DNA from: an uncultured Candidatus Saccharibacteria bacterium
Lineage (GTDB): Bacteria; Patescibacteriota; Minisyncoccia; Phycocordibacterales; UBA918
Length of the DNA: 64,000 nt
Reading direction: 5' to 3'
Assembly (NCBI GenBank): GCA_964626635.1
Contig: CAZVFY010000002.1
Coordinates: 5,300 to 69,299 of the forward strand
Below are positions 14,575-52,427 of this stretch, in pieces; position 1 is the stretch's first letter, and every line of letters begins with the position of its first letter. The position numbers and the translations under genes are program-made. A model generated the notes under the pieces. That model saw nothing but the letters and a program-made list of their open reading frames with translations. It was not told the origin of the DNA and made no database searches.

Positions 14575-16164
14575 ATGCAGTCTATCCCCGAGGCAGAACT
14601 ATTACCCTACGCGCGACGCGAGGATTTTAAGGTTGGTAAAGCCTCTGAACTCACTGGCCGCGATCGGCGTTTTTATCGGTTTTTGGAAATTGTGCCCGGC
14701 CTCGCTTCATGGGGAGCGCTGATTGGGATTGTGTTGGCGTCAATTTACGCGTCGTTCTTTGCGGCGTATTTTATTATTGCATTCGCGATTTACTGGGTAC
14801 TGAAAACAATCTTTTTGTCGTATCACGTGCGCTACAACTGGAAACGCTTGCGTCACCATATGAAGCTTGATTGGCGACAGCTAGTTAGCAAATACGAGTA
14901 CGACCACTTGCAGCACCTCGTTGTATTTCCCTACTACAAAGAACCGCGCGCCGTGCTAGTCGAAGCCTTGGAGGGCTTGCGGGCGGCGCATTATAATCCA
15001 CAGAAACTGATCGTTGTCTTAGCGGCCGAGGAACGCGCCGGTGCCGAGCAGGTGACGTTAGGCGAGTCATTAGTACAAGAGTACGCTGGTACGTTCGGCA
15101 GCCTAACGCTCACGGTGCATCCGGATGATGTGCCAGGCGAGATTGCTGGCAAGGGCTCGAACGTACACCACGCACTACACCAGGTTCGCGAAGAGATTAT
15201 CGACCCGCGCCAAATCGGCTACCGCGATATCCTCGTATCTATATTTGATGTTGATACCGTGGTGTACCCCGACTACTTTAACTGTTTGGTCTGGCATTTT
15301 ATGAACGCCGAGCATCCGTTCAAAAGCGCGTTTCAGCCGGTGCCACTATTTACTAATAATTTGTGGGAGGCACCGGCGGTTTCGCGTGTGATGGCAATGT
15401 CGAGTACATTCTGGCAAATGATTATGCAGGAGCGACCCGACAAGGCCGCAACGTTCTCGTCTCATTCAGTTAGTTTTCAGTCGCTGTACGAAATTGGCTA
15501 TGGCCAGGCCAACGTGGTCAGTGAAGACTCGCGAATTTACTGGAACCTGTACATCGCAAATGATGGAGATTTTCATATCGTGCCGCTTTCGTACCCGATT
15601 GCCATGGACGCCACAACAGCGCCGACGTTGTGGGGAACGATCATTAATATTTACCGCCAGCACCGTCGCTGGACGTACGGCGTCGAAAACTGGTGTTACA
15701 TCGTCTACCACTTTACCAAGAACAAAGCGATTCCACTGCGCAAGCGCCTAGCGGTTGGGTTCATGTCCGGTGAGGGTTACTGGGCGTTGGTGACGAATCC
15801 AATCATGTTGTTTATCCTCGGGTGGGCACCGATTTTCCTCGGCACACAAGAATTTCACCAAACGGTACTATCGTACGAACTGCCAATTCTGGTGCGGAAT
15901 ATGTTGACATTTGCTATGATCGGGTTAGTGGTGTCTGCAATCATCTCGTTGTCTCTCACCCCGCCACGGCCGGCTGGACACAGTCGGTTCAAGTACATCG
16001 TCATGGCGTTGCAGTGGATCATGGTGCCTTTGACCATGATCGTGTTTAGTGCGATTCCAGGGCTTGATGCGCAGACGCGATTGATGCTCGGTCGGTACAT
16101 GGGGTTCTGGGTCACACCCAAACGCAGCAATGTAAAAGCGATCACGCGTCGCGCCATAGCCTAA
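14575..16164 (+). CDS. family 2 processive glycosyltransferase (cellulose/chitin-synthase-like), integral membrane
   Basis: DVD (DxD), SED and QHRRW (Q-x-x-R-W) motifs; multiple TM helices at both ends. Confidence 0.7.
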   Translation: MQSIPEAELLPYARREDFKVGKASELTGRDRRFYRFLEIVPGLASWGALIGIVLASIYASFFAAYFIIAFAIYWVLKTIFLSYHVRYNWKRLRHHMKLDWRQLVSKYEYDHLQHLVVFPYYKEPRAVLVEALEGLRAAHYNPQKLIVVLAAEERAGAEQVTLGESLVQEYAGTFGSLTLTVHPDDVPGEIAGKGSNVHHALHQVREEIIDPRQIGYRDILVSIFDVDTVVYPDYFNCLVWHFMNAEHPFKSAFQPVPLFTNNLWEAPAVSRVMAMSSTFWQMIMQERPDKAATFSSHSVSFQSLYEIGYGQANVVSEDSRIYWNLYIANDGDFHIVPLSYPIAMDATTAPTLWGTIINIYRQHRRWTYGVENWCYIVYHFTKNKAIPLRKRLAVGFMSGEGYWALVTNPIMLFILGWAPIFLGTQEFHQTVLSYELPILVRNMLTFAMIGLVVSAIISLSLTPPRPAGHSRFKYIVMALQWIMVPLTMIVFSAIPGLDAQTRLMLGRYMGFWVTPKRSNVKAITRRAIA

Positions 16165-20087: not shown

Positions 20088-22181
<2,094 letters not shown>

Positions 22182-22197
22182 CACAATGGCGACAACA

Positions 22198-22229
22198 CAA
22201 AAGCCCCGGCACGAGTACCGGGGCTTTTG
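22198..22229. terminator. bidirectional intrinsic terminator between gyrB and the convergent gene
   Basis: AAAAGCCCCGG-loop-CCGGGGCTTTT with flanking A and T tracts. Confidence 0.7.
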
Positions 22230-22241
22230 TGTTGTAGGCTA

Positions 22242-23285
22242 TTAGCGGACTACTTGAGTGAATGAGTCGTTGTTATCAAACAAGTCTTCGTCTGTAGCAG
22301 TGGTGACCGTTACCGTGAACGGTGTTGCAGTCCGGTCAAAACCGAGGCTAATCACTGCCCGCTCGTTCGGCTTGAGTGGATCTTGAGCAGGTGAGCGGTA
22401 AGTTGTACCGTCAGGTAGTGACGCGACGTATGTCCAGATATCTGAGGTTTTACTACCAAAGTTTTGAACAGCAAACTGCACAGCGTCAGGATTGTTGCGT
22501 TCGATAGTTGCGGGTACGAATGTGCGATTGATGATTGTTCCCACACTACCATAGCTGGCGGCCAGATCTACGAACCCTGCTGGGTTCGAGACTGGAATGC
22601 TAAATTCGAACTGCTGTGTAACGGACGGTGCGGTAAGGGCAATATTGTCAGTTGCAGGTACCTCTATCGCTCCATCATCTGCGGCTACCTCGTTAGTGTC
22701 GTCGTTTGTAGTCGCGTTAGAAGCTTCACCATTTGTACCAATATTGTCTGTGATATTTGTATTCATGACCGTGAATACACCACTCCCCTCGGCGCTCACG
22801 TCAGATGAATCAGTGCCAACAAATCCAATTTTGTATTGTACGTCGGTGTAACGACTTTCGGTTGATTCGGCTATGAGGCTGACCTGGTTGACGGCGCCTA
22901 TATTATAATCAGTGTTACAGTCGATTTCAAAAAGGCCGTCTTGGCTGTCATGGCTCAAGGTAATACCAGGATCACAAGCGTAGACGAACACATACTCGCC
23001 ATTAGGTTCAGCGTCCCAACTGATTACTACAGACTCCCCATTCTCTAGAATGGTGGTGTCAGTAGCGACGGCAATTGGCAATACTGGATCTGGTTCAAGG
23101 TCAGCGGTTGGTTCTTGTGAGTTATTTACGCCACTGGTGATTGATGCGAGCGAACCGAGGGCGTTTGGCATACCGCCGATAAAACGCATGGCAAACCATG
23201 CCACGGCTAAAATTATGAAAAGAACGCTAATAAGGATGGCTGCCTTAACGATAGGCGAGCGCTTTGATGTATTGGTATCACTCAT
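22242..23285 (-). CDS. hypothetical type II membrane-anchored extracellular protein
   Basis: N-terminal signal anchor PIVKAAILISVLFIILAVAWFAM; Thr/Asn/Asp-rich ectodomain; TATAAT box 5 nt before the ATG. Confidence 0.5.
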   Translation of the reverse strand: MSDTNTSKRSPIVKAAILISVLFIILAVAWFAMRFIGGMPNALGSLASITSGVNNSQEPTADLEPDPVLPIAVATDTTILENGESVVISWDAEPNGEYVFVYACDPGITLSHDSQDGLFEIDCNTDYNIGAVNQVSLIAESTESRYTDVQYKIGFVGTDSSDVSAEGSGVFTVMNTNITDNIGTNGEASNATTNDDTNEVAADDGAIEVPATDNIALTAPSVTQQFEFSIPVSNPAGFVDLAASYGSVGTIINRTFVPATIERNNPDAVQFAVQNFGSKTSDIWTYVASLPDGTTYRSPAQDPLKPNERAVISLGFDRTATPFTVTVTTATDEDLFDNNDSFTQVVR

Positions 23286-23404
23286 ATAAAATTATATTAG
23301 CATGGATTATAAATAAGTCAAGTTTGATGTAATCATAATTACAGTAGTTCAAGGTCTTCAACTCTATCTAAATGCACTGTAAATGATGCCTCAGACAAAA
23401 ACTA

Positions 23405-23432
23405 TTGACAAACTTATCATAAGTGCTATGAT
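23405..23432 (+). promoter_or_regulatory. sigma70-like promoter of the sortase gene
   Basis: TTGACA - 16 nt - TATGAT, 11 nt upstream of ATG 23444. Confidence 0.45.
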
Positions 23433-23443
23433 TGTTTGCACGT

Positions 23444-24166
23444 ATGGAGACGAGCAACTCATTCGAACGCCTCATTGAAACGCTGTGGGAGCGCAAAATT
23501 TTATTTTTTGCTGCTTTTGCAATAATTGGATTATTGACCTACGCGTTACTCGCGTGGGTTGATTTTTTACCTGAGCCTCGCACAGTAGATCTTGATCCTC
23601 AAGCAACGTCTGAAAACAGTGTTGCACTGGGTGATAGTACTACAGCATTTCCGGCTCAAGAGATTGAAGTTGTATCGGGATCAGAAGATCCAGCAGCAGA
23701 GCCGGTAGAAGTGTTCGTGGCACCGGTACTACCAAACTCAATTTTTATACCTGCTACCGGTAAAACCATCCCGGTCTTGAACCCTAACTCTCGGTCAGTC
23801 GCTGATCTGGATGCGGCGCTACTAAATGGTGTCGTGCGACACCCTGACTCTGCGACGCTAGAAAGTGAGGGTAACGTGTTTATTTTAGGCCATTCTAGCT
23901 ATCTGCCGAATGTGTTCAATGAGTATTTTCAGGCTTTTAATGGTATCCAAGACCTGGAGTGGGGAGACGAAATTTTGGTCACTGCCAATGGCGAGACATA
24001 TGTGTACGTAGTTGACCGCGTGTTTGAAGCGCGCGCCTCAGAAGTAACCATCCCGCTGGTTGACACGGGCCGTCGGCTGACACTCGCCACCTGCGACAGT
24101 TTTGGTAGTGTCGAAGATCGGTTCATTGTCGAGGCGTCATTTGATCGCATCGATATGCAAATATAA
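23444..24166 (+). CDS. sortase family transpeptidase
   Basis: N-terminal TM helix; conserved His (VFILGHSS); catalytic LTLATCDSF (TLxTC motif); ATG 23444 preferred over the track's TTG at 23432. Confidence 0.75.
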   Translation: METSNSFERLIETLWERKILFFAAFAIIGLLTYALLAWVDFLPEPRTVDLDPQATSENSVALGDSTTAFPAQEIEVVSGSEDPAAEPVEVFVAPVLPNSIFIPATGKTIPVLNPNSRSVADLDAALLNGVVRHPDSATLESEGNVFILGHSSYLPNVFNEYFQAFNGIQDLEWGDEILVTANGETYVYVVDRVFEARASEVTIPLVDTGRRLTLATCDSFGSVEDRFIVEASFDRIDMQI

Positions 24167-24352
24167 TTACTTGACAAAACCTCAAAAATAGATTACAGTT
24201 GCTTGTAATTTATCGCTCTTTACTGCACAACTCGTAGAGGCAGCTAGTACTCAACAAAATAATATAGCGCAGCACTGTCTTTCATGGGATTGCTTACTCT
24301 TGCGTATGTGGTGTAGGTAGGAGTATTAATTTTAGGAAATAATTATAAATGT

Positions 24353-27061
24353 ATGAATACAAAAACTGTATTACGCCTGAGCTATGTACTGCCGATGCTA
24401 TTTGCGTTGGTATTCACATTTGCCGCTCCGGCTGCAACTATTGCTGCATGGGATGGCAATCAGAGTTCAGGCTGGTCAAACAGCGGAGGATTCGATTGGG
24501 GTGATCGTCCAGATTGGACAAATTCATTTAACTGGTCGAATGACAATAACTATGGAGATAATGGATCTTCTAGCAGCGCCAGTTCAGAAACGAAGTGTAA
24601 AGTTGACTCTCGGGTTGAGACTATTTCGTATGGTGGCAGTGTGACTCTGACCTGGGACACTGTTGGCGCTACGTCGGTGACCGTAAACGGTGAGTCAGTT
24701 AACCTTAGTGAAGGTAGTAAAACCTTTACAAATATTACTGAAGACACTGAATACGTACTCGAAGTAAAAACCGACAACGGTTCATGTAAAACAACTATTA
24801 AGGTTATCTGTCTGCCACCAGTCGTCATTAAAGGATGTACCGACGAACACGCTTTCAACTACAACCCGGATGCAACCGAGGATGATGGCTCATGTGAATA
24901 CGAGGTTCCCGGGTGTACTGATGATAATGCCGTCAATTATAATCCAGACGCCACCAAAGACGATGGTTCTTGTACATATCAAAAGTTATGTGAACCCGGT
25001 GATCAGTTTTACAATCCAGAAGCCGACTTAGAAGGTACTATTTTCGACGGTACAAAAGGGCGGGTAGTAAACACTTCGCAATACTGCGATTACAAAATTG
25101 GTCTTGCATCATATGAAAAATTTGATGAAATTATTGACAATCAAATTATCTTTGACAGTAAAACCGGCGTCGTAAAAGCAAGCAGTCAGAAAGAGTTACA
25201 CGTTACTGTGCCTGAGTGCGCATACCAAATTAATCTCTTTTACGGTCATGTGCTACAATCGCTTGATGGACAGCGATACGGCGATCGATTACTGGACGCT
25301 GAACATCTCAATAGCGAAAAGGGCTACTGTGGTCAAGAACAAGTTGTCTTAAAATGTACGTTGGTTGCTGATCGTAATGAAATTAAGCGTGGCGAATCAG
25401 CGACTTTAACGTGGACTAGTGAGCACGCCGAGTTTGCGTTTATAGACCGGGGTATTAATGACGTCGAGCTAAATGACAGTCGATCAGTAAAACCCAAGAA
25501 GACTACTACCTACACCCTTACTGTCTTTGGAAAAGATGGTCAAGAAAAAAAATGTGATGAAACTATAAAAGTTGAGAAAGATCCGACTCCAACCCCGGTT
25601 CCAAAATGTCACTCTTTCAGTATTGCTGAAAGTAAGGTTGTGCCGAGCGGTGATATTACCCTGTCATGGGACACGTCTGACACAACTAATGTAACAATTA
25701 CAAATATTGGTAGCGTTGCTAGTGATGGTTCGAACCAGGTCTTTAGCGCACCAGACAGTGAGGGTGAATTCACTTACGTCTTAACTTATGCTGGTAAGAC
25801 AAACGACACCTGCCGCGATACGCTAACTGTTGAGCGTGAAAGTGCCAGTATACCAGTTTGTGATTTGTTTACTGCTAGCGACACGTCGATCAATAAGGGT
25901 GAGCAAACGACATTGCGGTGGCAAACGACTAATGTTACCAATGTCTCAATTAACAATGGGGTAGGGTCAAATCTAGAGGTTGACGGTAACGTTGAGGTGA
26001 CACCCCAATCAGATACCACCTACATCCTCACGTTTGATGGTAATACAAATGATGATTGTCGTGTGGACATCAGCGTGACTAAAGACAGTGGTGGAGGTGG
26101 TGGCGGCGGTGGCAGTTCTTCTCCACGGTGTGAACTAGATATTTCAGACACGCGTATTGCTGCCGGGGAAGAAATTACCCTGACCTGGGATTCGACCCGA
26201 GCGCGTGACCTCACTATTACTGATGACCGAGGCAATGTCATCGTTACCACCGAAGACAAATTGTCAGACGATAAAGATGAATTATTTGAAGGTTCGATTG
26301 ATCTGCGACCAACGCGTGATACTGAATACACGCTCGTGGTCGAACGTGGAAGTCGTGACCGTGAATGTAATGTGTCAGTAGATATTCGTGGCAGTGTCAG
26401 TGGCGCCAGTATCACTGTTTTAGAAGAGCGTGATCAACAGCCGCTCATTACTGGCATCTCGCTATCAGAAGTGCCACACACAGGGTTCGAAGCTGGACCA
26501 CTCATGACATTTGCGTTCTATGCACTACTGGTTACTTGGGCATTAGTGCTCGCGTATGTACTAGTAATCCCTAGAGGAGCAGTTGCAAATGTCCACACCA
26601 CCACCGCAACTCCAACTGGTAATATCACCGCTCCAGTACCAACCGTGGTCGACTCTAGTCGAGTGTTCCCAGACTATGCAGCTCACACCAATACACCACA
26701 GTATAGCGCTGCTGCCACCGTGGCCGCACCAACCAATCTGCCAACTGGTTCAGTCGAAGATATTCTGGCGGCGCCAGTTGCACCGGCACCAGCACCGACC
26801 GCTCTGACCACGCCGACTCAAGCAGCCGTCCTAGCCGAAGGCACGCCGGTAGAAGTCGCTGCCCTCGAAGCTGTAGCTCACAATAACCAAGCGCTCTTCT
26901 CGAGTGATGCTCTCAAGGTGTTCATGGACATTACTGCAACCCAAGAACAGCTCATGAAAGCCGAACAAGTCATTACACTTGGTAAGTCACTCTATCCACT
27001 AGAAGACGGCTGGCTCATGATCAACAAAGCTCGAATGTTTGAACTGTTGGCGCAAACCTAA
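24353..27061 (+). CDS. large repeat-rich cell-surface protein with internal sortase-like sorting signal
   Basis: Signal peptide; five ~100 aa beta-sandwich repeats with T(L/V)TWD cores; two Cys-bracketed NYNPDAT.DDGSC repeats; poly-Gly linker; VPHTG motif then TM helix then Arg, followed by a ~170 aa tail. Confidence 0.6.
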   Translation: MNTKTVLRLSYVLPMLFALVFTFAAPAATIAAWDGNQSSGWSNSGGFDWGDRPDWTNSFNWSNDNNYGDNGSSSSASSETKCKVDSRVETISYGGSVTLTWDTVGATSVTVNGESVNLSEGSKTFTNITEDTEYVLEVKTDNGSCKTTIKVICLPPVVIKGCTDEHAFNYNPDATEDDGSCEYEVPGCTDDNAVNYNPDATKDDGSCTYQKLCEPGDQFYNPEADLEGTIFDGTKGRVVNTSQYCDYKIGLASYEKFDEIIDNQIIFDSKTGVVKASSQKELHVTVPECAYQINLFYGHVLQSLDGQRYGDRLLDAEHLNSEKGYCGQEQVVLKCTLVADRNEIKRGESATLTWTSEHAEFAFIDRGINDVELNDSRSVKPKKTTTYTLTVFGKDGQEKKCDETIKVEKDPTPTPVPKCHSFSIAESKVVPSGDITLSWDTSDTTNVTITNIGSVASDGSNQVFSAPDSEGEFTYVLTYAGKTNDTCRDTLTVERESASIPVCDLFTASDTSINKGEQTTLRWQTTNVTNVSINNGVGSNLEVDGNVEVTPQSDTTYILTFDGNTNDDCRVDISVTKDSGGGGGGGGSSSPRCELDISDTRIAAGEEITLTWDSTRARDLTITDDRGNVIVTTEDKLSDDKDELFEGSIDLRPTRDTEYTLVVERGSRDRECNVSVDIRGSVSGASITVLEERDQQPLITGISLSEVPHTGFEAGPLMTFAFYALLVTWALVLAYVLVIPRGAVANVHTTTATPTGNITAPVPTVVDSSRVFPDYAAHTNTPQYSAAATVAAPTNLPTGSVEDILAAPVAPAPAPTALTTPTQAAVLAEGTPVEVAALEAVAHNNQALFSSDALKVFMDITATQEQLMKAEQVITLGKSLYPLEDGWLMINKARMFELLAQT

Positions 27062-43958: not shown

Positions 43959-44480
43959 ATGTTAATGATGCGACTACAACGCGTCGGCCGCCGTAACGAT
44001 CCATCTTACCGAATCGTGGTCACCGACAAGCGAACCGGCCCTAAGAGCGACAAACACGTCGATCGTCTGGGTTCTTACAATCCTAAAATGGACCACATCC
44101 AAATTGACGCTGACCGCGCCAAAGACTGGCTCAGCAAGGGCGTACAGCCGTCTGACACGGTGTACAACATCCTGGTGGGACAGAAAATTGTCGAAGGCCG
44201 TAAGCGCAACGTGCTCCCAAAGAAATCTCCAATAATTGATGAAGAAGCTCTCGCCAAAGCCAAAGAAGAGGAAGAAGCGAAAAAAGCTGCCGAAGAAGCC
44301 GCTGCCGCCGAAGCCAAGGCTAAGGAAGAAGCAGAAGCAGCTACTGTAGACGAAGCAGCAGCTGACACACCAGCCGAAGACGCTTCAGCCGAAACTGACA
44401 GCGAAACAGAAGAAAAGCCGGTAGAACCAGCCGCTGACGAACCAGCCGCCGACGACGCACCAGAGGAAGACAAAAAATAG
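43959..44480 (+). CDS. rpsP: 30S ribosomal protein S16 with long Lys/Ala/Glu-rich C-terminal extension
   Basis: MLMMRLQRVGRRNDPSYRIVVTDKR....GSYNP aligns with the S16 N-terminus; 173 aa versus ~82 typical. Confidence 0.85.
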   Translation: MLMMRLQRVGRRNDPSYRIVVTDKRTGPKSDKHVDRLGSYNPKMDHIQIDADRAKDWLSKGVQPSDTVYNILVGQKIVEGRKRNVLPKKSPIIDEEALAKAKEEEEAKKAAEEAAAAEAKAKEEAEAATVDEAAADTPAEDASAETDSETEEKPVEPAADEPAADDAPEEDKK

Positions 44481-44944: not shown

Positions 44945-44956
44945 TATAATCACCAC

Positions 44957-44987
44957 AAAAGACCCGCTTCGGCGGGTTTTTTGTTGC
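44957..44987 (+). terminator. intrinsic terminator ending the rpsP-KH operon
   Basis: AAAAGACCCGC-TTCG-GCGGGTTTTTTGTT. Confidence 0.8.
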
Positions 44988-45029
44988 GCAACACACTGGT
45001 TTGTACTATGGTGCCTGTATACTACAGCT

Positions 45030-45815
45030 ATGAAACGCGCTCACTTTTACATACTCACCGCCGCCATTGGTCTCTTACTTATTCTTGCAATTGTTGTGTT
45101 TACTAACGAACCCGACGTAGCCCCAGGAGATACGGCTGGCAATACCACACAACCGCAACCAGCCCCGACCGAACCAGCAGAGCGAACTGCACCCCTCAGC
45201 ACCACCACCGCCGCTGGTACCTTCATCATCGACCCCGCCATCCCAATCAACGAGCGCTGTACCCCCGTGACCCTGGCGTGTCTGGAGGCGCAGCCGGAGT
45301 GGAACCCAACCATGGCGACAACCGGGATCGAGCGGATTGACCCGAGCGAGCTCACGCTGTTCGATGGTACCTACCAACTAGACTACCAATCCGTCCCGCG
45401 CAGTACCGATCCATTTACTTTCGTGACCGCTAAAGACGAGCACGACCCTGCATATTGCGCACAGTATGACCTCACCGGCTTGGATTTATTTATCCGTGAT
45501 GAGGGACCCTTAGAACCATCATGTTCAATTTACCCACCAGAAGCGTACCAAGAGTTCGTCATTCTTGATGAGAACGAGGCGGTGGTGCATGCGTATCGCT
45601 TATCGGATAAATATTCGTTATTAGAACTAAGGGCCGGCGTGCAACTAATGGGGAGGGTTAATTCGGTCGGTGCAGGATGTTGCAACAGTCAATACAGTAC
45701 ATCTCTCTCTCTCTCATTTATAAACTGGTCTGATTATAATCAGTTTTATAACCCTATCGTTACAGGGGTTTATATAAACCCTTACACCGGCGCCTTCAAC
45801 GACCGCACCAATTAG
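45030..45815 (+). CDS. signal-anchored extracytoplasmic protein, paralog family member A1
   Basis: MKRAHFYILTAAIGLLLILAIVVF anchor; conserved core TTTAAGTFIIDPAIPI.ERCTPVTLACLEAQPEW; contains an in-frame (TC)7 tract; TATACT box 6 nt upstream of the ATG. Confidence 0.6.
   Translation: MKRAHFYILTAAIGLLLILAIVVFTNEPDVAPGDTAGNTTQPQPAPTEPAERTAPLSTTTAAGTFIIDPAIPINERCTPVTLACLEAQPEWNPTMATTGIERIDPSELTLFDGTYQLDYQSVPRSTDPFTFVTAKDEHDPAYCAQYDLTGLDLFIRDEGPLEPSCSIYPPEAYQEFVILDENEAVVHAYRLSDKYSLLELRAGVQLMGRVNSVGAGCCNSQYSTSLSLSFINWSDYNQFYNPIVTGVYINPYTGAFNDRTN
45702..45715 (+). repeat. (TC)7 dinucleotide repeat inside paralog A1 coding sequence (currently in frame)
   Basis: tctctctctctctc encoding SLSLS. Confidence 0.8.
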
Positions 45816-45913
45816 TCGACACCCTTTTGGCCCCGTGCTACACTCGCCTTAGAACAGCCGCCCTTTCGGGCGGTTTCTGTTCTTTGATAACCTCAAACAA
45901 AAAGGAGGCAGTC

Positions 45914-48850
45914 ATGGCTGCAACTACAACAAGTGTCGATCGAAGTGTAACTGTAGAGGAGGGTGATCGTGCTCGCATCTACATCGAGCGCGAAGGAGAT
46001 CTAGCTACCTACTCAACTGTTTGGGTTACAGTCGTCTTTAGTGATCGGGACGAGAGCTGGGGCGACTTATCATTTCGCCGCGTCGGCGGTGATGGGGTGA
46101 GTTGGTTCAATCAAAATCAAAACCAAGGCGCAATCAATTTTGCCCCTGGTGATGATCGAGCGTACGTAGAATTCGACATCACTGAAGACGGTCAGGCTGA
46201 GGATTACGAATCCTTTGGAATCGAAATCTACAACCCAACCAATACTAATATCGGTGATTCGCGCGACTTTATCAAAGTTCCCGAACACGATACCGCGCCC
46301 AACACCAACCTGCCGCTCGTCCGCGTCGATGACGCGGTCGCAGCGCTCGAGGGTACGGGCCAAGAACTGGAGTGGAAGATCACGTACACCAACCCGTACA
46401 ACCGGGACTGGGATGGCAGCGAAGACGGCCGCACGGTCGTGCACTACCAGATCATCAATGACCGGACGGGGCAGGTGGTGGACAGCGGCTCGACCACCAA
46501 CAGCAACGTAGATGCTTACGAGGTAGAAACGCGCACCATCGACTACCGTCCGCCAGACGACAATGTCTACACCGGCGGCACGACGTACACCTTCCGGGTC
46601 ACCCGGCTCGAGTACCTCAGTGGCCAGACCGGCAATGTCGCGTCTGGCCTAGTGGTCGATGACGAGCTACCATATGTACCGCCGATCCCACCAGAAATCT
46701 CGATCCGCGGCGACACGGTCGACGAAGGCGAGGTTGCCAACGTCGAGCTGCGTCTCAACAAAGCGAGCGCGTCCGATGTCTCGGTCGTGGTTAGCACGTA
46801 CTACGGTACGTTTAATGAAGCCAACACTGGCGGCAGCGGCCTCGACTACGCTGGGCTTGTGGACCGTTCGTTCACTATCCCCGCCGGGGACACGAGCGTC
46901 ACGGTGCCGATCACGACGTTCACTGACAACATCTACAACGAAGGAGACGAACGCTTTGAAGTCCGGATCGAATCCGCCAGTGGCGCAACCATAGATGATG
47001 AAAGCGCCACGGTACGGATCCGGGATACCACGGTAGAACCGGAGCCAGTCCCTGACCCGGTCTTGTCCGGGTCGCAAGTATTCGAGTACAACCTCGCCTT
47101 GACCAGCGCGGAATCGATCATGGGTACCAATCGTTTGGTATCGGTGATCGAGTCCGAACCACTCTTGCTGCGTCTCGCAAAGACTTTGCAAGACGCTGGC
47201 AGCAATGTGATCGATGGTCTGGTGCAGGCTGGATTGTCGCTGATCGGGACTACTGCATACGCGGCCGAAGCCGATGTGCCACCTGTCCAGTCGTTCAACT
47301 CTATGGCCGACGAGTGGTATGAGTTCTTGTTCCCAAGTTCGTCGTACGGGCGTCTGCTCGCTAGTCTGCCAGATTACTACACCTCGTGGGATCTGGCGGT
47401 GCGTGATGTCGAGCTGCGAGTTGGTGACTACGTGGATGATCGGTTGGTGATCGGTCAGCCACTGTTCAGTGAAGATGGACTCGAAGTCGATGCAGGGGGT
47501 CGGACGATCTATAGCAGTCTGCAAGGTAGGTATGACGCTGTAGACAGAATGACCTCTCACTTCAGCAATGATGGCCATGCCTTTGATTGGGGTGGCCGGA
47601 TAACTGGTAATAACGATGCCTTCGTATTGGCTCCAATCGGAGCCTGGGTCGTTCACGCAGTTGATCATTATGTCAATGATCCAACCAACAATGGCTGGGG
47701 TAGTGATAGTAACAAAAATGATAACGGAGGGTTCGGAAATGTTGTTACGATTCGTGTTGCACACCCCAATGGCGCAGACGTTGATATAACGTTTGCTCAC
47801 CTTAAGAAAGGAAGTGTGCCCGATGCATTTCTGAAAGCAACGGAAGCCAATCCAGTCGAGGTTGATCAATACCAAATCCTTGGTTTGATGGGGAATACGG
47901 GTGCTGGCGATAAACACTTGCACATGCAGGTGGGAAACGGTATTGAAAACGGCATTGCTGTTATACCAAGTGAAGATATCGAGTCTAAACTTAACTTGAA
48001 TCCACCTGTCTACATGCTTGGCTTCGGCAATGCCGATATCGCCTCTCGCGCAGAATTGAAAGGAGATACCTCTCTGGCGCAAGATGCTGGCTTCCCAGCT
48101 GGCGATAGCCGTGGCAGCGAACCGAATGTGGTCAGTGGCATCCAATCCACCGTCGACTACGATGACTTCCGGGCCATCAACGACGCGTACTTCAACCCAC
48201 CACCCCAAGGCCCTCGCCAAATCATCACCACCGAATACGACGCCACTACCATTGGGTCGATTGCGGAGCGAGGTGGATGGACAGACATCTTGGACGGCAA
48301 CGCTTCACGAGTGAAGGTGCACGATCAAGACAACGAGTTGCGCTATAAACGCACGGACATTGAGGCCAGTGCGCGCACGGATGAACGGCACGAATCCAGA
48401 GTGCTAGTCACCGAGTTCGTCGTCGATCTTGCTGATGGTGTCGACCTCATCGGCGGCGAACTCGAACTTACGCTCGGGAAGCGCATCAAGCTTGACGCGT
48501 CTGGCCTCGACCAAGTCTCGCTGGCGGTGATCGCGGCCGAGATCGGCGACGATCTCGATCGCGCTGATCGCGATACGTTCGACTTCATCAACCCACTTTC
48601 TAACCAGGTGGGAGTGGATGAGAACTGGCGTCGCGGGGACACCGTTTCGTTTACGTTAAACGAGGCGGGCCTGACACATTTGGCCGCGGGCGGGGAACTG
48701 GCCGTGGCAACGTCGTACCATTTCGACAGTACGACCCCTCCCAATGACCGTAATGGCCGTTGGGACGAACTCCGCATCCAGATCGACGATGCGGATCTCG
48801 AACTGGAACTGCAGCTGCCAATCAACGGAGCTGACGAGTTCCTGTTCTAG
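45914..48850 (+). CDS. large Calx-beta and M23-peptidase-like domain protein without a signal peptide
   Basis: SD AAAGGAGG 5 nt upstream; Calx-beta-like segment (GDTVDEGEVANVELRLNKAS....ERFEVRIESASGATIDDESATVRIRD); M23-like GLMGNTGAGDKHLHMQV and AHPNGADVD; the last ~16 codons recur in downstream repeats. Confidence 0.65.
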   Translation: MAATTTSVDRSVTVEEGDRARIYIEREGDLATYSTVWVTVVFSDRDESWGDLSFRRVGGDGVSWFNQNQNQGAINFAPGDDRAYVEFDITEDGQAEDYESFGIEIYNPTNTNIGDSRDFIKVPEHDTAPNTNLPLVRVDDAVAALEGTGQELEWKITYTNPYNRDWDGSEDGRTVVHYQIINDRTGQVVDSGSTTNSNVDAYEVETRTIDYRPPDDNVYTGGTTYTFRVTRLEYLSGQTGNVASGLVVDDELPYVPPIPPEISIRGDTVDEGEVANVELRLNKASASDVSVVVSTYYGTFNEANTGGSGLDYAGLVDRSFTIPAGDTSVTVPITTFTDNIYNEGDERFEVRIESASGATIDDESATVRIRDTTVEPEPVPDPVLSGSQVFEYNLALTSAESIMGTNRLVSVIESEPLLLRLAKTLQDAGSNVIDGLVQAGLSLIGTTAYAAEADVPPVQSFNSMADEWYEFLFPSSSYGRLLASLPDYYTSWDLAVRDVELRVGDYVDDRLVIGQPLFSEDGLEVDAGGRTIYSSLQGRYDAVDRMTSHFSNDGHAFDWGGRITGNNDAFVLAPIGAWVVHAVDHYVNDPTNNGWGSDSNKNDNGGFGNVVTIRVAHPNGADVDITFAHLKKGSVPDAFLKATEANPVEVDQYQILGLMGNTGAGDKHLHMQVGNGIENGIAVIPSEDIESKLNLNPPVYMLGFGNADIASRAELKGDTSLAQDAGFPAGDSRGSEPNVVSGIQSTVDYDDFRAINDAYFNPPPQGPRQIITTEYDATTIGSIAERGGWTDILDGNASRVKVHDQDNELRYKRTDIEASARTDERHESRVLVTEFVVDLADGVDLIGGELELTLGKRIKLDASGLDQVSLAVIAAEIGDDLDRADRDTFDFINPLSNQVGVDENWRRGDTVSFTLNEAGLTHLAAGGELAVATSYHFDSTTPPNDRNGRWDELRIQIDDADLELELQLPINGADEFLF

Positions 48851-48900
48851 AACGAACAACTGATAGCACCCGTGGCGTCCGCGCCACGGGTGGTTTTTTA
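48795..48900 (+). repeat. R1: ~100 nt two-hairpin repeat (3' codons of the large gene plus terminator), followed by a conserved promoter
   Basis: GAACTGGAACTGCAGCTGCCAATC..GGAGCTGACGAGTTCCTGTTCTAG imperfect hairpin, then CACCCGTGGCGTCCGCGCCACGGGTGGTTTTTT; four copies in the island. Confidence 0.8.
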
Positions 48901-48936
48901 TCTTATTCTAAGCTACAGTGCTGCTATACTCACATT

Positions 48937-49647
48937 ATGAAACGATCTCATTTTTACATCCTCGTGGCCGCCATTGGCTTACTCGTTCTCTTGGCTATAT
49001 TTGCGTTGTACGCAAACGATACTGAAACTAGTCCAGTTACTACAATCACCAATACCACAGAACCGCAATCAGTCCCGTCTGAACCAACAGAATCTACCAC
49101 ACCGATCTCCACCACCACTGCAGCCGGCACCTTCATCATCGATCCAGCCATTCCGATCGAAGAGCGTTGCACCCCCGTGACGCTGGCGTGTTTGGCGGCG
49201 CAGCCGGAGTGGAGTCCTGCTACGGAATTCAACGGTATGAAACGGGTGGATCCCTTAGAATTATCAATGTTTACTGGTGACATTGAATTGCAAGAAACAG
49301 TTTTGGGAAAAACGCGGGATGTTTTTACCTTGGTACAGCCGTCAGGAGAACTCACAGAAAAATATTGCGCTGACAGAAACATTGCTGTCCCAAATGCAAT
49401 TTGTCCTAAATATGCACTACCTACTTATAATGAATTTGCTATTAAGATTACAGACACTGATGAGATCGTTCATGCGTATGAGCTTGTTAATAATAACTCA
49501 ACAACGTACGTGCCATACTGCGTACCGAGTCTGGAATACTGTGATGGATTGGGTGGAGATAGCGCTGTCGGAAGAGATGCGATTCCACATAAAATTGGAA
49601 TTATGATTTGGCAATGGGACGACATCAACAAAAAAACCCGAGCCTAG
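48937..49647 (+). CDS. signal-anchored extracytoplasmic protein, paralog A2
   Basis: MKRSHFYILVAAIGLLVLLAIFAL plus conserved core; A7 tract at 49630-49636 near the 3' end. Confidence 0.6.
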   Translation: MKRSHFYILVAAIGLLVLLAIFALYANDTETSPVTTITNTTEPQSVPSEPTESTTPISTTTAAGTFIIDPAIPIEERCTPVTLACLAAQPEWSPATEFNGMKRVDPLELSMFTGDIELQETVLGKTRDVFTLVQPSGELTEKYCADRNIAVPNAICPKYALPTYNEFAIKITDTDEIVHAYELVNNNSTTYVPYCVPSLEYCDGLGGDSAVGRDAIPHKIGIMIWQWDDINKKTRA

Positions 49648-49755
49648 ATGAGACCGATGAGAGAGAACTCAATATTACTAATCTATACACCGGAGAAATT
49701 AATCGGTTTATTCCAGTTAATGAACGCTAGCTCTACCTCATTACAATTAAAAAAG

Positions 49756-49826
49756 GGCCACGAGTTCTTGTTTTCAAACGAACAACTAATAACACCCGTG
49801 GCGTGCGCGCCACGGGTGGTTTTTTA
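49756..49826 (+). repeat. R2: partial copy of the repeat (terminator hairpin and flanks) with conserved promoter downstream
   Basis: GAGTTCTTGTTTTCAAACGAACAACTAATAACACCCGTGGCGTGCGCGCCACGGGTGGTTTTTT; following promoter ATCTTATTCTAAGCTACAGTGCTGCTATACT is identical to R1. Confidence 0.75.
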
Positions 49827-49862
49827 TCTTATTCTAAGCTACAGTGCTGCTATACTCTACGT

Positions 49863-50580
49863 ATGAAACGAACTCACTTCTACCTCCTTGCCACCGCCAT
49901 TGGCTTACTCATCCTCCTGAGTGTGTTTGCGCTGTACAAAAACGATACTACCAACGGGCCCGTAGCTTCGACCATTATTCCAGCCGCAGAACCACTTTCC
50001 ACCACCACTGCCAACGGCGACACTTTCATCACCGACCAATCCATCCCAATCGTGGAGCGCTGCACCCCCGTGACCCGCGCTTGTTTGGAGGTGCAGCCGG
50101 AGTGGGGGCCGACGATGGCGACGACCGGAATCGAGCGGGTTGAGCCGGGGGAGTTAATATATATATAATCCAGACTATATTACCTCAGTTAGTAATGCAA
50201 ATAATTTTGCAATTGTTCACACTGGCCTGGTACACAGTAATATGAACTGTAACGATCGTGGTATTAATCCTAATTCTGTAAACGGCTGGGGTGCACCGGT
50301 GAGTTGTGCGCAGCGCGACAAATCAGTTTTTACTGAATTACTCGTTATTGATGCAATTACTCAAGAACCACTACATGCATATAAAATTACTGGCAATTAC
50401 TCTTGGCTCGGTAGCTATCTAGAAGGGTGGAAGGTGGGAGGCTATCCGTTCGGCGGACAGCCAAATTATTTATATGTCACAATTTTCAATTGGTCTGATG
50501 ATAGTTATGCAGAGTTCTCTAGGCCGACATTGAATTACCGCCTCAACCCCTACACTGGCGAACTGACTGTAAATGACTAG
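49863..50580 (+). pseudogene. paralog A3, split into two ORFs by a frameshift at a (TA)5 tract
   Basis: 49863-50168 encodes the conserved N-terminal 101 aa and ends GELIYI*; 50242-50580 encodes a family-like C-terminus; adding one TA unit fuses them in frame. Confidence 0.6.
50158..50167 (+). repeat. (TA)5 dinucleotide repeat at the A3 frameshift point
   Basis: tatatatata; other paralogs have GAGTTGACGTTGTTTAAT at the equivalent position. Confidence 0.8.
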
Positions 50581-50616
50581 CTTTACGAGAACTTGCCGGA
50601 ATACAAAGGTGCCATC

Positions 50617-51237
50617 ATGAAACGCTCCCACTTCTACCTCCTCGCTACCGCTATCGGCCTCCTTATCCTCCTCGCGCTATTTGCGTTGTATACAAACACC
50701 ACTGACAACAGTCCTGCTACCATTAATGCACCTGCCGGCGCAACCACCTCGCCTGCAGCCACACCCCTCTCTACCACTACCGCAGCCGGCACCTTCCTCA
50801 TCGACCCCGCCATTCCGATCGCGGAGCGTTGCACCCCCGTGACCCTCGCTTGTTTGGAGGCGCAGCCGGAGTGGGGGCCGACGATGGCGACGACCGGAAT
50901 CAAGCGGGTTAAGCCGGGGGAGTTGACGTTGTTTAATAACCGCTATGAATTGGAACGCTTTCCAGTGCCTAAGGGTAGACAACCAGAACTAAGTCCATTT
51001 GAAATGGTCGTGCGCGCAGCAGATTTTAAAGAAGAGTACTGTGCACAGTATGACGATCCAGACCTGCGTCCAGGCCAACGTTGTAACATACTGCCGTACA
51101 CCGCATATACCGAAATGGCCATTGTTTTAAAAGGTACGGAAAAAGTGGTGCACGCGTATCGCACTACAGATGAATACTCGTTGCTGTATCCGTACTGGTT
51201 AGTGATGGGGGGGCGTGGAATATTACTAGCGGCTTAG
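50617..51237 (+). CDS. signal-anchored paralog A4, C-terminally truncated by a frameshift at a G7 tract
   Basis: MKRSHFYLLATAIGLLILLALFAL plus core nearly identical to A3 at DNA level; the +1 frame downstream to 51355 encodes a family-like C-terminus (KQQYGFTIRDWSG...). Confidence 0.6.
   Translation: MKRSHFYLLATAIGLLILLALFALYTNTTDNSPATINAPAGATTSPAATPLSTTTAAGTFLIDPAIPIAERCTPVTLACLEAQPEWGPTMATTGIKRVKPGELTLFNNRYELERFPVPKGRQPELSPFEMVVRAADFKEEYCAQYDDPDLRPGQRCNILPYTAYTEMAIVLKGTEKVVHAYRTTDEYSLLYPYWLVMGGRGILLAA
51207..51213 (+). repeat. G7 homopolymer at the A4 truncation point
   Basis: atgggggggcg; G8 would extend the ORF by ~40 codons with family homology. Confidence 0.8.
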
Positions 51238-51388
51238 GTACTAAACAGCAGTACGGTTTTACAATAAGAGATTGGTCCGGCGTCCTTAACGGCTACGCCG
51301 GTTACCGAGCGACTCCTGACGATGTTTTTGTACTTACTCAATCCGTACACTGGGCAGTTTGAGTTGTATTAGTTATTACCTTTATATC

Positions 51389-51490
51389 ACTCGAACTAGA
51401 ACTGCAGCTGCCAATCGGAGCTGACGAGTTCTTGTTCTAAGCAGTACAACTGATAGCACTCGTGGCGTCCGCGCCACGGGTGGTTTTTTT
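51389..51490 (+). repeat. R3: copy of the two-hairpin repeat with no large gene upstream
   Basis: CTCGAACTAGAACTGCAGCTGCCAATCGGAGCTGACGAGTTCTTGTTCTAA...CACTCGTGGCGTCCGCGCCACGGGTGGTTTTTTT; in-frame stop 9 codons upstream of the conserved part. Confidence 0.8.
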
Positions 51491-51512
51491 GTAAAAGTGT
51501 GCTATTTTTTTT

Positions 51513-52208
51513 ATGAAACGATTCATACTCTTACTGTTAACACTAATCATATTAATGTTCGCGTTGCACTACGTTCATTACAGTAAGAAAGCCAATTTAA
51601 TGATGAGTTGGTCTGAAACTCATAATCCCGGTATCAATACCACCCTTAATGAAGAAGAGTACTGCAATTATCTATCAGCTAGTTGCTTGCAAAATCAACC
51701 TGGCTGGGATCCAACACTTGAAACCGAGACCTTTTCACGAATTAGTCCGCAGGATGTAGAAATTTTTGCCTCCGAAGTGGGGGTGTCTTCACGATCATCT
51801 TTGGTAAACGAAATACCAAACTTCGAAATAATATTGCCAAATTACGTTGAAGGCCCAGAATATTGCACACAATGGTCTTCAAGCAAGTTTTTTATCACAG
51901 AACTCAAAGGGTATGACGTGCAGTGCTCAAAGTATCGCCCGGAGCTTTATCGTGAATTTGTTGTGCGATCTACAGACACTAATGAAATTATTCATGCTTA
52001 CAGACTAAAAGATAGTTATACCTTGCTGCCTCTTATTGCTACTGTAATGGAAGGTGGTCCGGGCATAAACTATGGTAGACCAGACAAAGGAGATTTTGGG
52101 TTTAGTGTTTATAGTAGCTTGCTACTCGATGATGGGAGGAGTTTTGATTTAGTGGCTAGTTATTACATTGATGTTCTTACCGGTAAGATTATTTCAATTC
52201 CAGATTAA
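51513..52208 (+). CDS. divergent member (A5) of the signal-anchored paralog family
   Basis: MKRFILLLLTLIILMFAL anchor; shared C-terminal motifs EYCTQW, YREFVV, EIIHAYRLKDSYTLL; T8 tract at 51505-51512 just upstream of the ATG. Confidence 0.55.
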   Translation: MKRFILLLLTLIILMFALHYVHYSKKANLMMSWSETHNPGINTTLNEEEYCNYLSASCLQNQPGWDPTLETETFSRISPQDVEIFASEVGVSSRSSLVNEIPNFEIILPNYVEGPEYCTQWSSSKFFITELKGYDVQCSKYRPELYREFVVRSTDTNEIIHAYRLKDSYTLLPLIATVMEGGPGINYGRPDKGDFGFSVYSSLLLDDGRSFDLVASYYIDVLTGKIISIPD

Positions 52209-52280
52209 TTTTTGTAATATATAAATCATACATCCGCCAATCTGCTTCAAGAAAGTCAGAAAACACATTTATAAATGTGG

Positions 52281-52380
52281 ATCTAGAACTAGAACTGCAG
52301 CTGCCAATCGGAGCTGACGAGTTCTTGTTCTAAGCAGTACAACTGATAGCACTCGTGGCGTCCGCGCCACGGGTGGTTTT
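52281..52380 (+). repeat. R4: copy of the two-hairpin repeat directly upstream of trmD
   Basis: Nearly identical to R3 over ~95 nt. Confidence 0.8.
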
Positions 52381-52427
52381 CTGGTAGTTGCATTTTTCGT
52401 ATGCTACATTCTAATATATCTGCAAGT

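Follow-up and report, generated by a model that had tools for sequence, protein, structure and literature searches.

The 64-kb stretch analysed here, hereafter the window (64,000 nucleotides of contig CAZVFY010000002.1, assembly GCA_964626635.1), carries five paralogous genes, designated A1 to A5, together with a larger partner gene, Big, all on the plus strand; four frameshifts, all situated at a homopolymer run or a dinucleotide repeat, disrupt three of these paralogs. The gene order is RNase R (minus strand), rpsP, a KH-domain gene, A1, Big, A2, A3, A4, A5, trmD, rpoB and rpoC. Because the KH gene and trmD are neighbours in L015, L017 and L026, the closest relatives with both genes on the fetched stretch, the block from A1 to A5 is a 7.4-kb lineage-specific insertion between them; the interval from the KH gene to trmD (window 44945-52427) contains no rimM. 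An earlier sequence-only reading of this locus had proposed that A1 to A5 are paralogs of one family that vary in phase through slippage at simple-sequence repeats (SSRs). The membership of all five in one family was borne out, and each was found to share an N-terminal membrane helix; the five tracts that it named were likewise read from the sequence where it had placed them, namely (TC)7 at 45702-45715, A7 at 49630-49636, (TA)5 at 50158-50167, G7 at 51207-51213 and T8 at 51505-51512.

A1 (45030-45815) is intact and encodes 261 amino acids (aa), beginning with a transmembrane helix; its (TC)7 tract is in frame and encodes SLSLS, such that gain or loss of one TC unit would truncate the product to 231 or 233 aa. 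A2 (48937-49730) had been described as simply carrying an A7 tract, which is present, but the gene is in fact frameshifted there: the called open reading frame (ORF) ends at 49647 after 236 aa, whereas a tract of A8 yields 264 aa with the stop at 49728-49730. The A8 product ends in NLYTGEINRFIPVNER and regains the conserved C-terminal N-x-(Y/L)-T-G motif, which is the end of nearly every family member. A3 (49863-50580) is split at (TA)5 into an N-terminal part of 101 aa (49863-50168) and a C-terminal part that is open from 50158 to 50580; as had been proposed, one additional TA unit joins the two, giving 239 aa for (TA)6, and (TA)3 is equally effective, giving 237 aa.

A4 (50617-51372) proved more complicated than anticipated. 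Its called ORF ends at 51237 (206 aa), and shifts occur both at G7 and at a T5 run (51325-51329). The predicted extension by G8 holds in that the product lengthens from 206 to 248 aa, but the stop then lies at 51360-51362 rather than at 51355, and downstream of G8 the family frame is lost once more; only when G8 is combined with the opposite shift of T5 to T4 is a family-like protein of 251 aa obtained, ending in LLNPYTGQFELY with its stop at 51370-51372. Because two repairs are needed, A4 is a dead pseudogene. A5 (51513-52208) is an intact, divergent member of 231 aa with a guanine-plus-cytosine (GC) fraction of 0.39, and the T8 tract (51505-51512) lies between a TGcTAT -10-like element and its ATG at 51513. 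Each disrupting lesion coincides with a simple-sequence tract, and a change of one unit would undo it, as had been claimed. The repairs were scored against a hidden Markov model of the family built without any window sequence: A2 rose from 129.7 to 139.1 bits (+9.4), A3 from 79.8 to 153.6 bits (+74), and A4 from 157.7 to 162.1 and then 172.4 bits over its two repairs.

The same strain has been assembled separately from several samples (JGI 3300040787, 3300040798, 3300040799 and 3300040801; Logan SRR7428122 and SRR7428130), which permitted a comparison of tract lengths at the level of assembly consensus. The contigs compared, those of three further JGI assemblies and two from Logan, were 99.9-100% identical to the window, and A7, (TA)5, G7 and (TC)7 had the same length in every assembly covering them; the tract-length differences expected of contingency genes were therefore absent at these four sites, and only T8 differed. 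Each of the broken (OFF) fragments was recorded on six contigs, including an NCBI record, by exact-sequence look-up. A7 or A8 runs at 25545, 53028, 61349 and 62770 lie inside intact long ORFs, among them trmD, dnaG and a 902-aa ORF at 24353. The lesions have the same state across separate assemblies, their fragments recur on six contigs, and A7/A8 runs leave the housekeeping genes that contain them undisrupted; assembly error, an explanation that had been left open for (TA)5 and G7, is thus essentially excluded. As the word-indexed homology search missed the short fragments P0007-P0009, exact look-ups and an exhaustive search of representatives were used in its place. Exact look-up among about 15 billion proteins returned none of the restored (ON) proteins (A2 with A8, A3 with (TA)6 or (TA)3, A4 with G8) and neither of the A1 OFF proteins ((TC)6 and (TC)8); a homology search with the repaired A3 likewise found no full-length version.

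The sole indel among all assemblies was a change from T8 to T9 in contig L008 of sample 3300040798. This contig also carries three clustered single-nucleotide polymorphisms in Big (48520, 48523 and 48532, about 3 kb from T9) which match the alleles of a co-occurring sister species (L093), and which reflect either recombination between co-occurring species or consensus mixing during assembly. T9 may accordingly derive from strain mixing rather than slippage, and the T8/T9 difference, at first considered direct evidence of slippage, was downgraded because L008 carries these sister-species alleles.

In order to judge whether the tracts are unusual, counts were compared with a first-order Markov expectation for the 64-kb window. 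Homopolymers of at least 7 numbered 16 against 10.0 expected (p = 0.06), and G/C runs of at least 7 numbered 1 against 2.6; dinucleotide repeats of at least 5 units numbered 4 against 0.93 (p = 0.03), and those of at least 7 units numbered 1 against 0.005. Because of these counts, A7, T8 and G7 are ordinary as raw tracts, whereas (TC)7 is unusual; no dinucleotide repeat in the 64 kb is longer, and among G/C runs only G7 reaches a length of 7. A second chance model resampled synonymous codons while holding the proteins fixed, and under it G8 was marginal (p ~ 0.03-0.07) and A8 unremarkable (p ~ 0.3-0.8); the A8 tract is not over-long because the NKKN (Lys-Lys) peptide explains the run. The cut-offs used for Campylobacter with PhasomeIt are G/C of at least 7, A/T of at least 10 and dinucleotides of at least 6 units (PMC6321876); by these organism-dependent values only G7 and (TC)7 are long enough, and A7, T8 and (TA)5 fall short. 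The tracts are positioned mid-gene or toward the 3' end, not at the 5' end. One unit toggles an otherwise intact ORF in A1 (from ON to OFF) and in A2 and A3 (from OFF to ON), but not in A4.

The A family is small, with about 35 cluster representatives among 1.84 billion. A Pfam search with A1 to A5 matched no family, and only Big has a recognized domain (Calx-beta). When the family motif was used to scan the GTDB species representatives, no relatives were found, and the scan of metagenomes yielded only the contig of P0006. A sister species present in sample 3300040801 has the same island. In that species the intact P0004 follows the KH gene and has an interrupted TC tract (TCTCTCaCTCTCTCTC); P0005, also intact, follows Big and has G6 at the same Met-Gly-Gly site as the G7 of A4; P0012, the copy nearest to trmD, is cut short by a stop just downstream of a G7 at the Met-Gly-Gly site, and either G6 or G9 restores a C-terminus of NPYTGEITVR before the stop. 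In a distant lineage, P0011 stops at SLSLG, and one additional CT unit at its (CT)4 tract restores ...SLSLWDDFGD...LNLYTG; this (CT)4 state was identical in six assemblies. At the G-run site, then, G6 occurs in P0005 (ON), G7 in A4 (OFF) and G7 in P0012 (OFF, in the other frame), while the TC site is (TC)7 in A1 (ON), interrupted in P0004 (ON), (CT)4 in P0011 (OFF) and absent from P0006. The A7 and TA tracts were not seen in homologs. P0033 was rejected as an SSR frameshift since it is a 5'-truncated remnant, and the genes of 215-216 aa that flank P0011 in L100 are not family members. Directly after the restored stop of P0012 (L106, about 1175-1240, before trmD) lies an N-terminal fragment of another family member (MKLLPLLVTILLAAGAVFIV followed by a stop), which appears to be what is left of a deleted paralog.

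Big (45914-48850) encodes 978 aa with a Calx-beta match in Pfam (E = 2.2e-6) and is a conserved partner of the A family, Big-like Calx-beta genes being found near family members in L095 and L100. Against the protein of the sister species (L092, L093) it is 91% identical over the last 170 residues and only 34% over the first ~160, from which it would be a second hypervariable surface protein of the island. Its true 3' end (LELELQLPINGADEFLF followed by the stop), together with a terminator hairpin at 48867-48892, forms a unit (48800-48903) that is the founder copy of a repeated module consisting of the last ~50 nucleotides (nt) of Big (..LELELQLPI(N)GADEFLF and stop) and a hairpin with an 11-bp stem. 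After A2 there is a short remnant of the module (49760-49826, hairpin 49793-49818; 85%), continuous with the duplicated A3 promoter region. After A4 there is another (51390-51493, hairpin 51457-51482), ending in ELELQLPIGADEFLF and a stop, and a second such remnant after A5 (52283-52386, hairpin 52350-52375) is 97% identical to it. Because the 3' end of Big and its hairpin recur after A2, A4 and A5, the remnants indicate that units of promoter, A gene, Big and terminator were duplicated, and that the extra copies of Big were subsequently lost; the remnants are relics of those units.

Sequence has probably also been exchanged among the paralogs. Over the 100 nt from 50056 to 50155, which end at the TA repeat, A3 is 92-97% identical to A4, as against 60-80% elsewhere in the 5' module, and the regions upstream of A2 and A3 are 96-100% identical; we take both as evidence of gene conversion. 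Upstream of A1 (45010-45032), A2 (48915-48939), A3 (49841-49865) and P0005 (L093), the motif TG(n)TATACT is followed after 6 nt by ATG, without a Shine-Dalgarno sequence, suggesting that these transcripts are leaderless. A4 has instead a Shine-Dalgarno-like AAAGGTG and is probably translated from the transcript of A3. In A5 the T tract overlaps the TGcTAT element, which lies 7 nt from the ATG (8 nt with T9), as compared with 9 nt in A2 and A3; if the genes are leaderless, tract length could tune expression of A5. The (TA)5 tract itself creates TTGAGC-18-TATAAT (50140-50169; 10/12), the best sigma-70-like match in the region, upstream of an ATG at 50242 in the C-terminal part of A3, but it was set aside as a driver of that part because promoter-like sites in the region occur at shuffle expectation (11 versus 8.7).

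AlphaFold modelling gave a mean predicted local distance difference test (pLDDT) score of 82.6 with an alignment of 31 sequences, although the result was poor (pLDDT 55) with only 6. In the better model an N-terminal helix (residues 4-23) leads through a linker of low confidence into a beta-rich domain that holds four conserved cysteines; the helix is probably a membrane anchor, and the A proteins are probably anchored and exposed at the surface. A comparison of the A model with solved structures gave no convincing match. The linker between helix and beta-rich domain is rich in Thr and Pro, and the C-terminal halves evolve very fast: between the sister species, genes at the A2 position have 3' halves that are only ~45-50% identical and effectively unalignable, whereas the flanks are 80-96% identical. 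Composition follows the same division, with GC contents of 51-61% in the 5' modules of the A genes and 39-47% in the 3' halves.

As to the wider setting, the window belongs to an uncultured, ultra-small and Paceibacteria-like member of the Patescibacteria, and RpoB of this genome is 80-84% identical to that of metagenome-assembled genomes (MAGs) labelled Patescibacteria or Paceibacteria (e.g. UBA918, JTS-AC391). The rpsP gene (43959-44480) encodes an S16 protein of 173 aa, in which the usual domain of ~85 aa is followed by a long extension, first Ala/Glu/Lys-rich and then acidic. The region from 22000 to 26000 has the lowest GC of the window (0.435-0.463 versus ~0.52), contains the start of the 902-aa ORF (24353-27061) and may be another lineage-specific region; Pfam gave no match for this ORF or for a 529-aa ORF at 14575-16164.

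Taken together, the observation behind the earlier proposal is confirmed and extended, and its interpretation as phase variation is partly supported: lesions at tracts, over-long dinucleotide tracts and homologs of two other lineages broken at homologous tracts agree with it, but heterogeneity of tract length is absent across assemblies. Each lesion is a genuine slipped-strand event and lies where the gene concerned is most prone to slippage. The most likely reading, to which we give about an even chance, is that redundant surface-protein paralogs undergo birth-and-death decay via such sites, as opposed to a demonstrated high-frequency switch. In this scheme, tandem duplication of a unit of promoter, A, Big and terminator would have produced one pair of A and Big plus four further A paralogs, and the extra copies of Big would then have been deleted. 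Slipped-strand indels would have disabled or truncated three of the five paralogs (A8 to A7 in A2; (TA)6 to (TA)5 in A3; G8 to G7 plus the T5 lesion in A4), and the OFF alleles, being the consensus in every available assembly, would mark redundant paralogs in decay. A2 and A3 would remain one slip from reactivation, so that low-rate, contingency-like behaviour may be possible; the direction of each slip and the lack of reversibility at useful rates are what we infer. Decay is favoured by the fixation of the OFF states at consensus, the shortness of the tracts and their location mid-gene or toward the 3' end, homopolymer counts at chance level for the window, the double lesion of A4, the truncated P0033 and the nearby remnants of Big and of A genes, from which decay does take place in the island, and by the intact sister-species homologs P0004 and P0005, which are without pure tracts (interrupted TC; G6).

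Other observations weigh against decay or for the second main reading, genuine SSR phase variation, in which A1 to A5 would switch by slipped-strand mispairing (A5 via the T tract at its promoter and start), varying the surface repertoire for host attachment or phage evasion; the sampled populations would then happen to be mostly A1-ON, A5-ON and A2/A3/A4-OFF. We regard this as a serious possibility, though on balance not the probable one. The lesions coincide exactly with the tracts, and one unit is enough to revert them; A2 and A3 bear a single lesion each, their restored frames contain no in-frame stops, and in A3 the 138 codons downstream of the shift are still open. Codon resampling gave p ~ 0.001 for (TC)7 and p ~ 0.001-0.008 for the ON-state (TA)6, and none of 3000 resamplings produced 3 or more of the 4 tracts together; the over-long (TC)7 and (TA)6 suggest active repeat dynamics or selection for mutability. 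The rank of (TC)7 and G7 among the repeats of the window also counts for switching. GGGGGG encodes just 1 of the 91 Gly-Gly dipeptides in the window's housekeeping genes, yet P0005, A4 and P0012 have G6, G7 and G7 at one site. From the breaks of P0012 and of P0011, the latter in a distant lineage, at homologous tracts, the G-run and TC sites would therefore be recurrent frameshift points. The six frameshift lesions in the family (four in the window plus those of P0011 and P0012) all lie at repeats, with no nonsense mutation, and about half of the members examined at the DNA level are OFF, like known phasomes; hypervariable C-terminal domains on a membrane-anchored protein also suit a switching surface, and Mycoplasma, which lack mismatch repair, switch at poly-A tracts of 7-9. 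The assemblies, moreover, report only the majority allele, such that minority ON cells are possible, and the consecutive numbers of the JGI samples leave their populations maybe not independent. Set against switching are the invariance of four tracts over all assemblies and of the (CT)4 of P0011 over six, the absence of ON proteins from the databases searched, the lengths of A7, T8 and (TA)5, which are under published cut-offs, the two repairs that A4 needs, the mid-gene or 3' positions, the complete explanation of A8 by its peptide and the confounding of T8/T9 by sister-species alleles.

Artefact of sequencing or assembly, which would make A2 to A4 ordinary intact genes, is the least probable explanation. 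It would account for three repairs each needing one more unit, as in under-called homopolymers, at a repetitive locus where other assemblies break; however, all separately assembled samples, and an NCBI record as well, agree in their tract states, an error of a dinucleotide unit is atypical, the second lesion of A4 needs one base fewer (the opposite direction), the A7/A8 runs of housekeeping genes are in frame, and the lesions of P0011 and P0012 are alike in other projects and assemblers. Recoding we consider very unlikely: some full-length protein would be made by transcriptional slippage or ribosomal frameshifting at A7, G7 or TA. Poly-A recoding has been reported in insect endosymbionts, A2 needs a -1 shift on C-AAA-AAA-C, on which both the lysine transfer RNA and RNA polymerase can slip, and the downstream frames are intact; yet efficient slippage of the polymerase would call for longer runs, a canonical X-XXY-YYZ heptamer is lacking, A4 needs two events, and TA repeats are not known as sites of recoding by a +2/-1 shift. 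An improbable role, if one compatible with the other readings, is that of a reservoir for recombination, in which conversion shuffles variable C-terminal modules from the frameshifted copies into A1 and A5; like silent cassettes, the donors would then have no need of an intact frame. The A3/A4 segment and the A2/A3 upstream identity, the bracketing of variable parts by conserved 5' modules and repeated 3' terminator modules, and the complete difference between the 3' halves of A2-position genes of the sister species all fit such a role. On the other hand, A2, A3 and A5 retain their own start codons and promoter-like sequences, conversion is seen only in conserved 5' and upstream parts with no tract in a variable 3' half, and the island yielded neither a recombinase nor a specific recombination signal.

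Bacteria in the Candidate Phyla Radiation (CPR), or Patescibacteria, are thought to live attached to host cells, and to our knowledge almost nothing is known of how they vary their surfaces. A literature search found no report of SSR ON/OFF switching in CPR bacteria; the nearest CPR case is a hypervariable gene of 9-mer repeats in a Gracilibacterium (PMC6851277). On mismatch repair in Patescibacteria, the literature search returned no usable result. The island may be the first SSR contingency system in the CPR, though this is less likely than not: a membrane-anchored, CPR-specific family without recognisable fold would keep slippery sites across lineages (the SLSL strand as (TC)n, the MGG turn as Gn) and, with gene conversion among paralogs, vary the surface toward hosts or phages, while the T tract of A5 would tune the spacing from -10 element to ATG of a leaderless promoter. 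If the tracts switch, they supply both a mechanism and a candidate family for host or phage interaction (the A proteins and the Calx-beta protein Big), both trackable in existing metagenomic reads; if they do not, the locus still illustrates cleanly how an island of surface proteins, specific to one lineage, evolves by birth and death within a conserved housekeeping cluster, and it cautions that a frameshift at a short repeat in a MAG does not on its own amount to evidence of phase variation.

Several known systems invite comparison. The SSR loci of Campylobacter, Neisseria and Haemophilus, poly-G/C or tetranucleotide tracts in genes for surface structures, resemble the island in having tracts inside the ORFs of a paralogous and probably surface-exposed family, where one unit toggles the frame and paralogs are in different states, and in occurring in small genomes, that of the window belonging to a probably host-dependent organism. 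The window tracts differ in being shorter, in lying in the middle or 3' part of the gene instead of close to its 5' end, and in showing no length polymorphism between assemblies; moreover, one copy has a second lesion, and there are no long tracts elsewhere in the 64 kb. In H. pylori, outer-membrane genes such as oipA/hopH carry (CT)n of ~6-9 units in the signal-peptide region, polymorphic between strains; the CT/TC repeat in the coding region of a paralogous envelope family is shared, and P0011 is OFF by one CT unit, whereas the repeat of A1 encodes the conserved SLSL strand close to the C-terminus and was not seen to be polymorphic. The pilE/pilS system of Neisseria resembles the island in that a variable 3' module adjoins a conserved 5' one, in its repeated flanks and in gene-conversion tracts among tandem copies; the A copies, by contrast, have retained their promoters and start codons, and a search of the island turned up no dedicated recombination element. 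Vaa of M. hominis and P78 of M. fermentans are switched by frameshifts at short poly-A tracts (about 7-9), as shown experimentally, and the A7/A8 arithmetic of A2, a short A tract in a surface-protein gene of a reduced-genome bacterium, is alike; the A2 tract, however, is explained by the NKKN peptide and lies 28 codons from the end. Finally, slippage pseudogenes of reduced or decaying genomes match the island in that frameshifts have become fixed at the longest runs of a gene and go together with second lesions, truncated remnants and the loss of neighbouring genes, but the window family stands apart from them in that it is free of nonsense mutations, contains over-long dinucleotide repeats and has been hit at the same sites across lineages.

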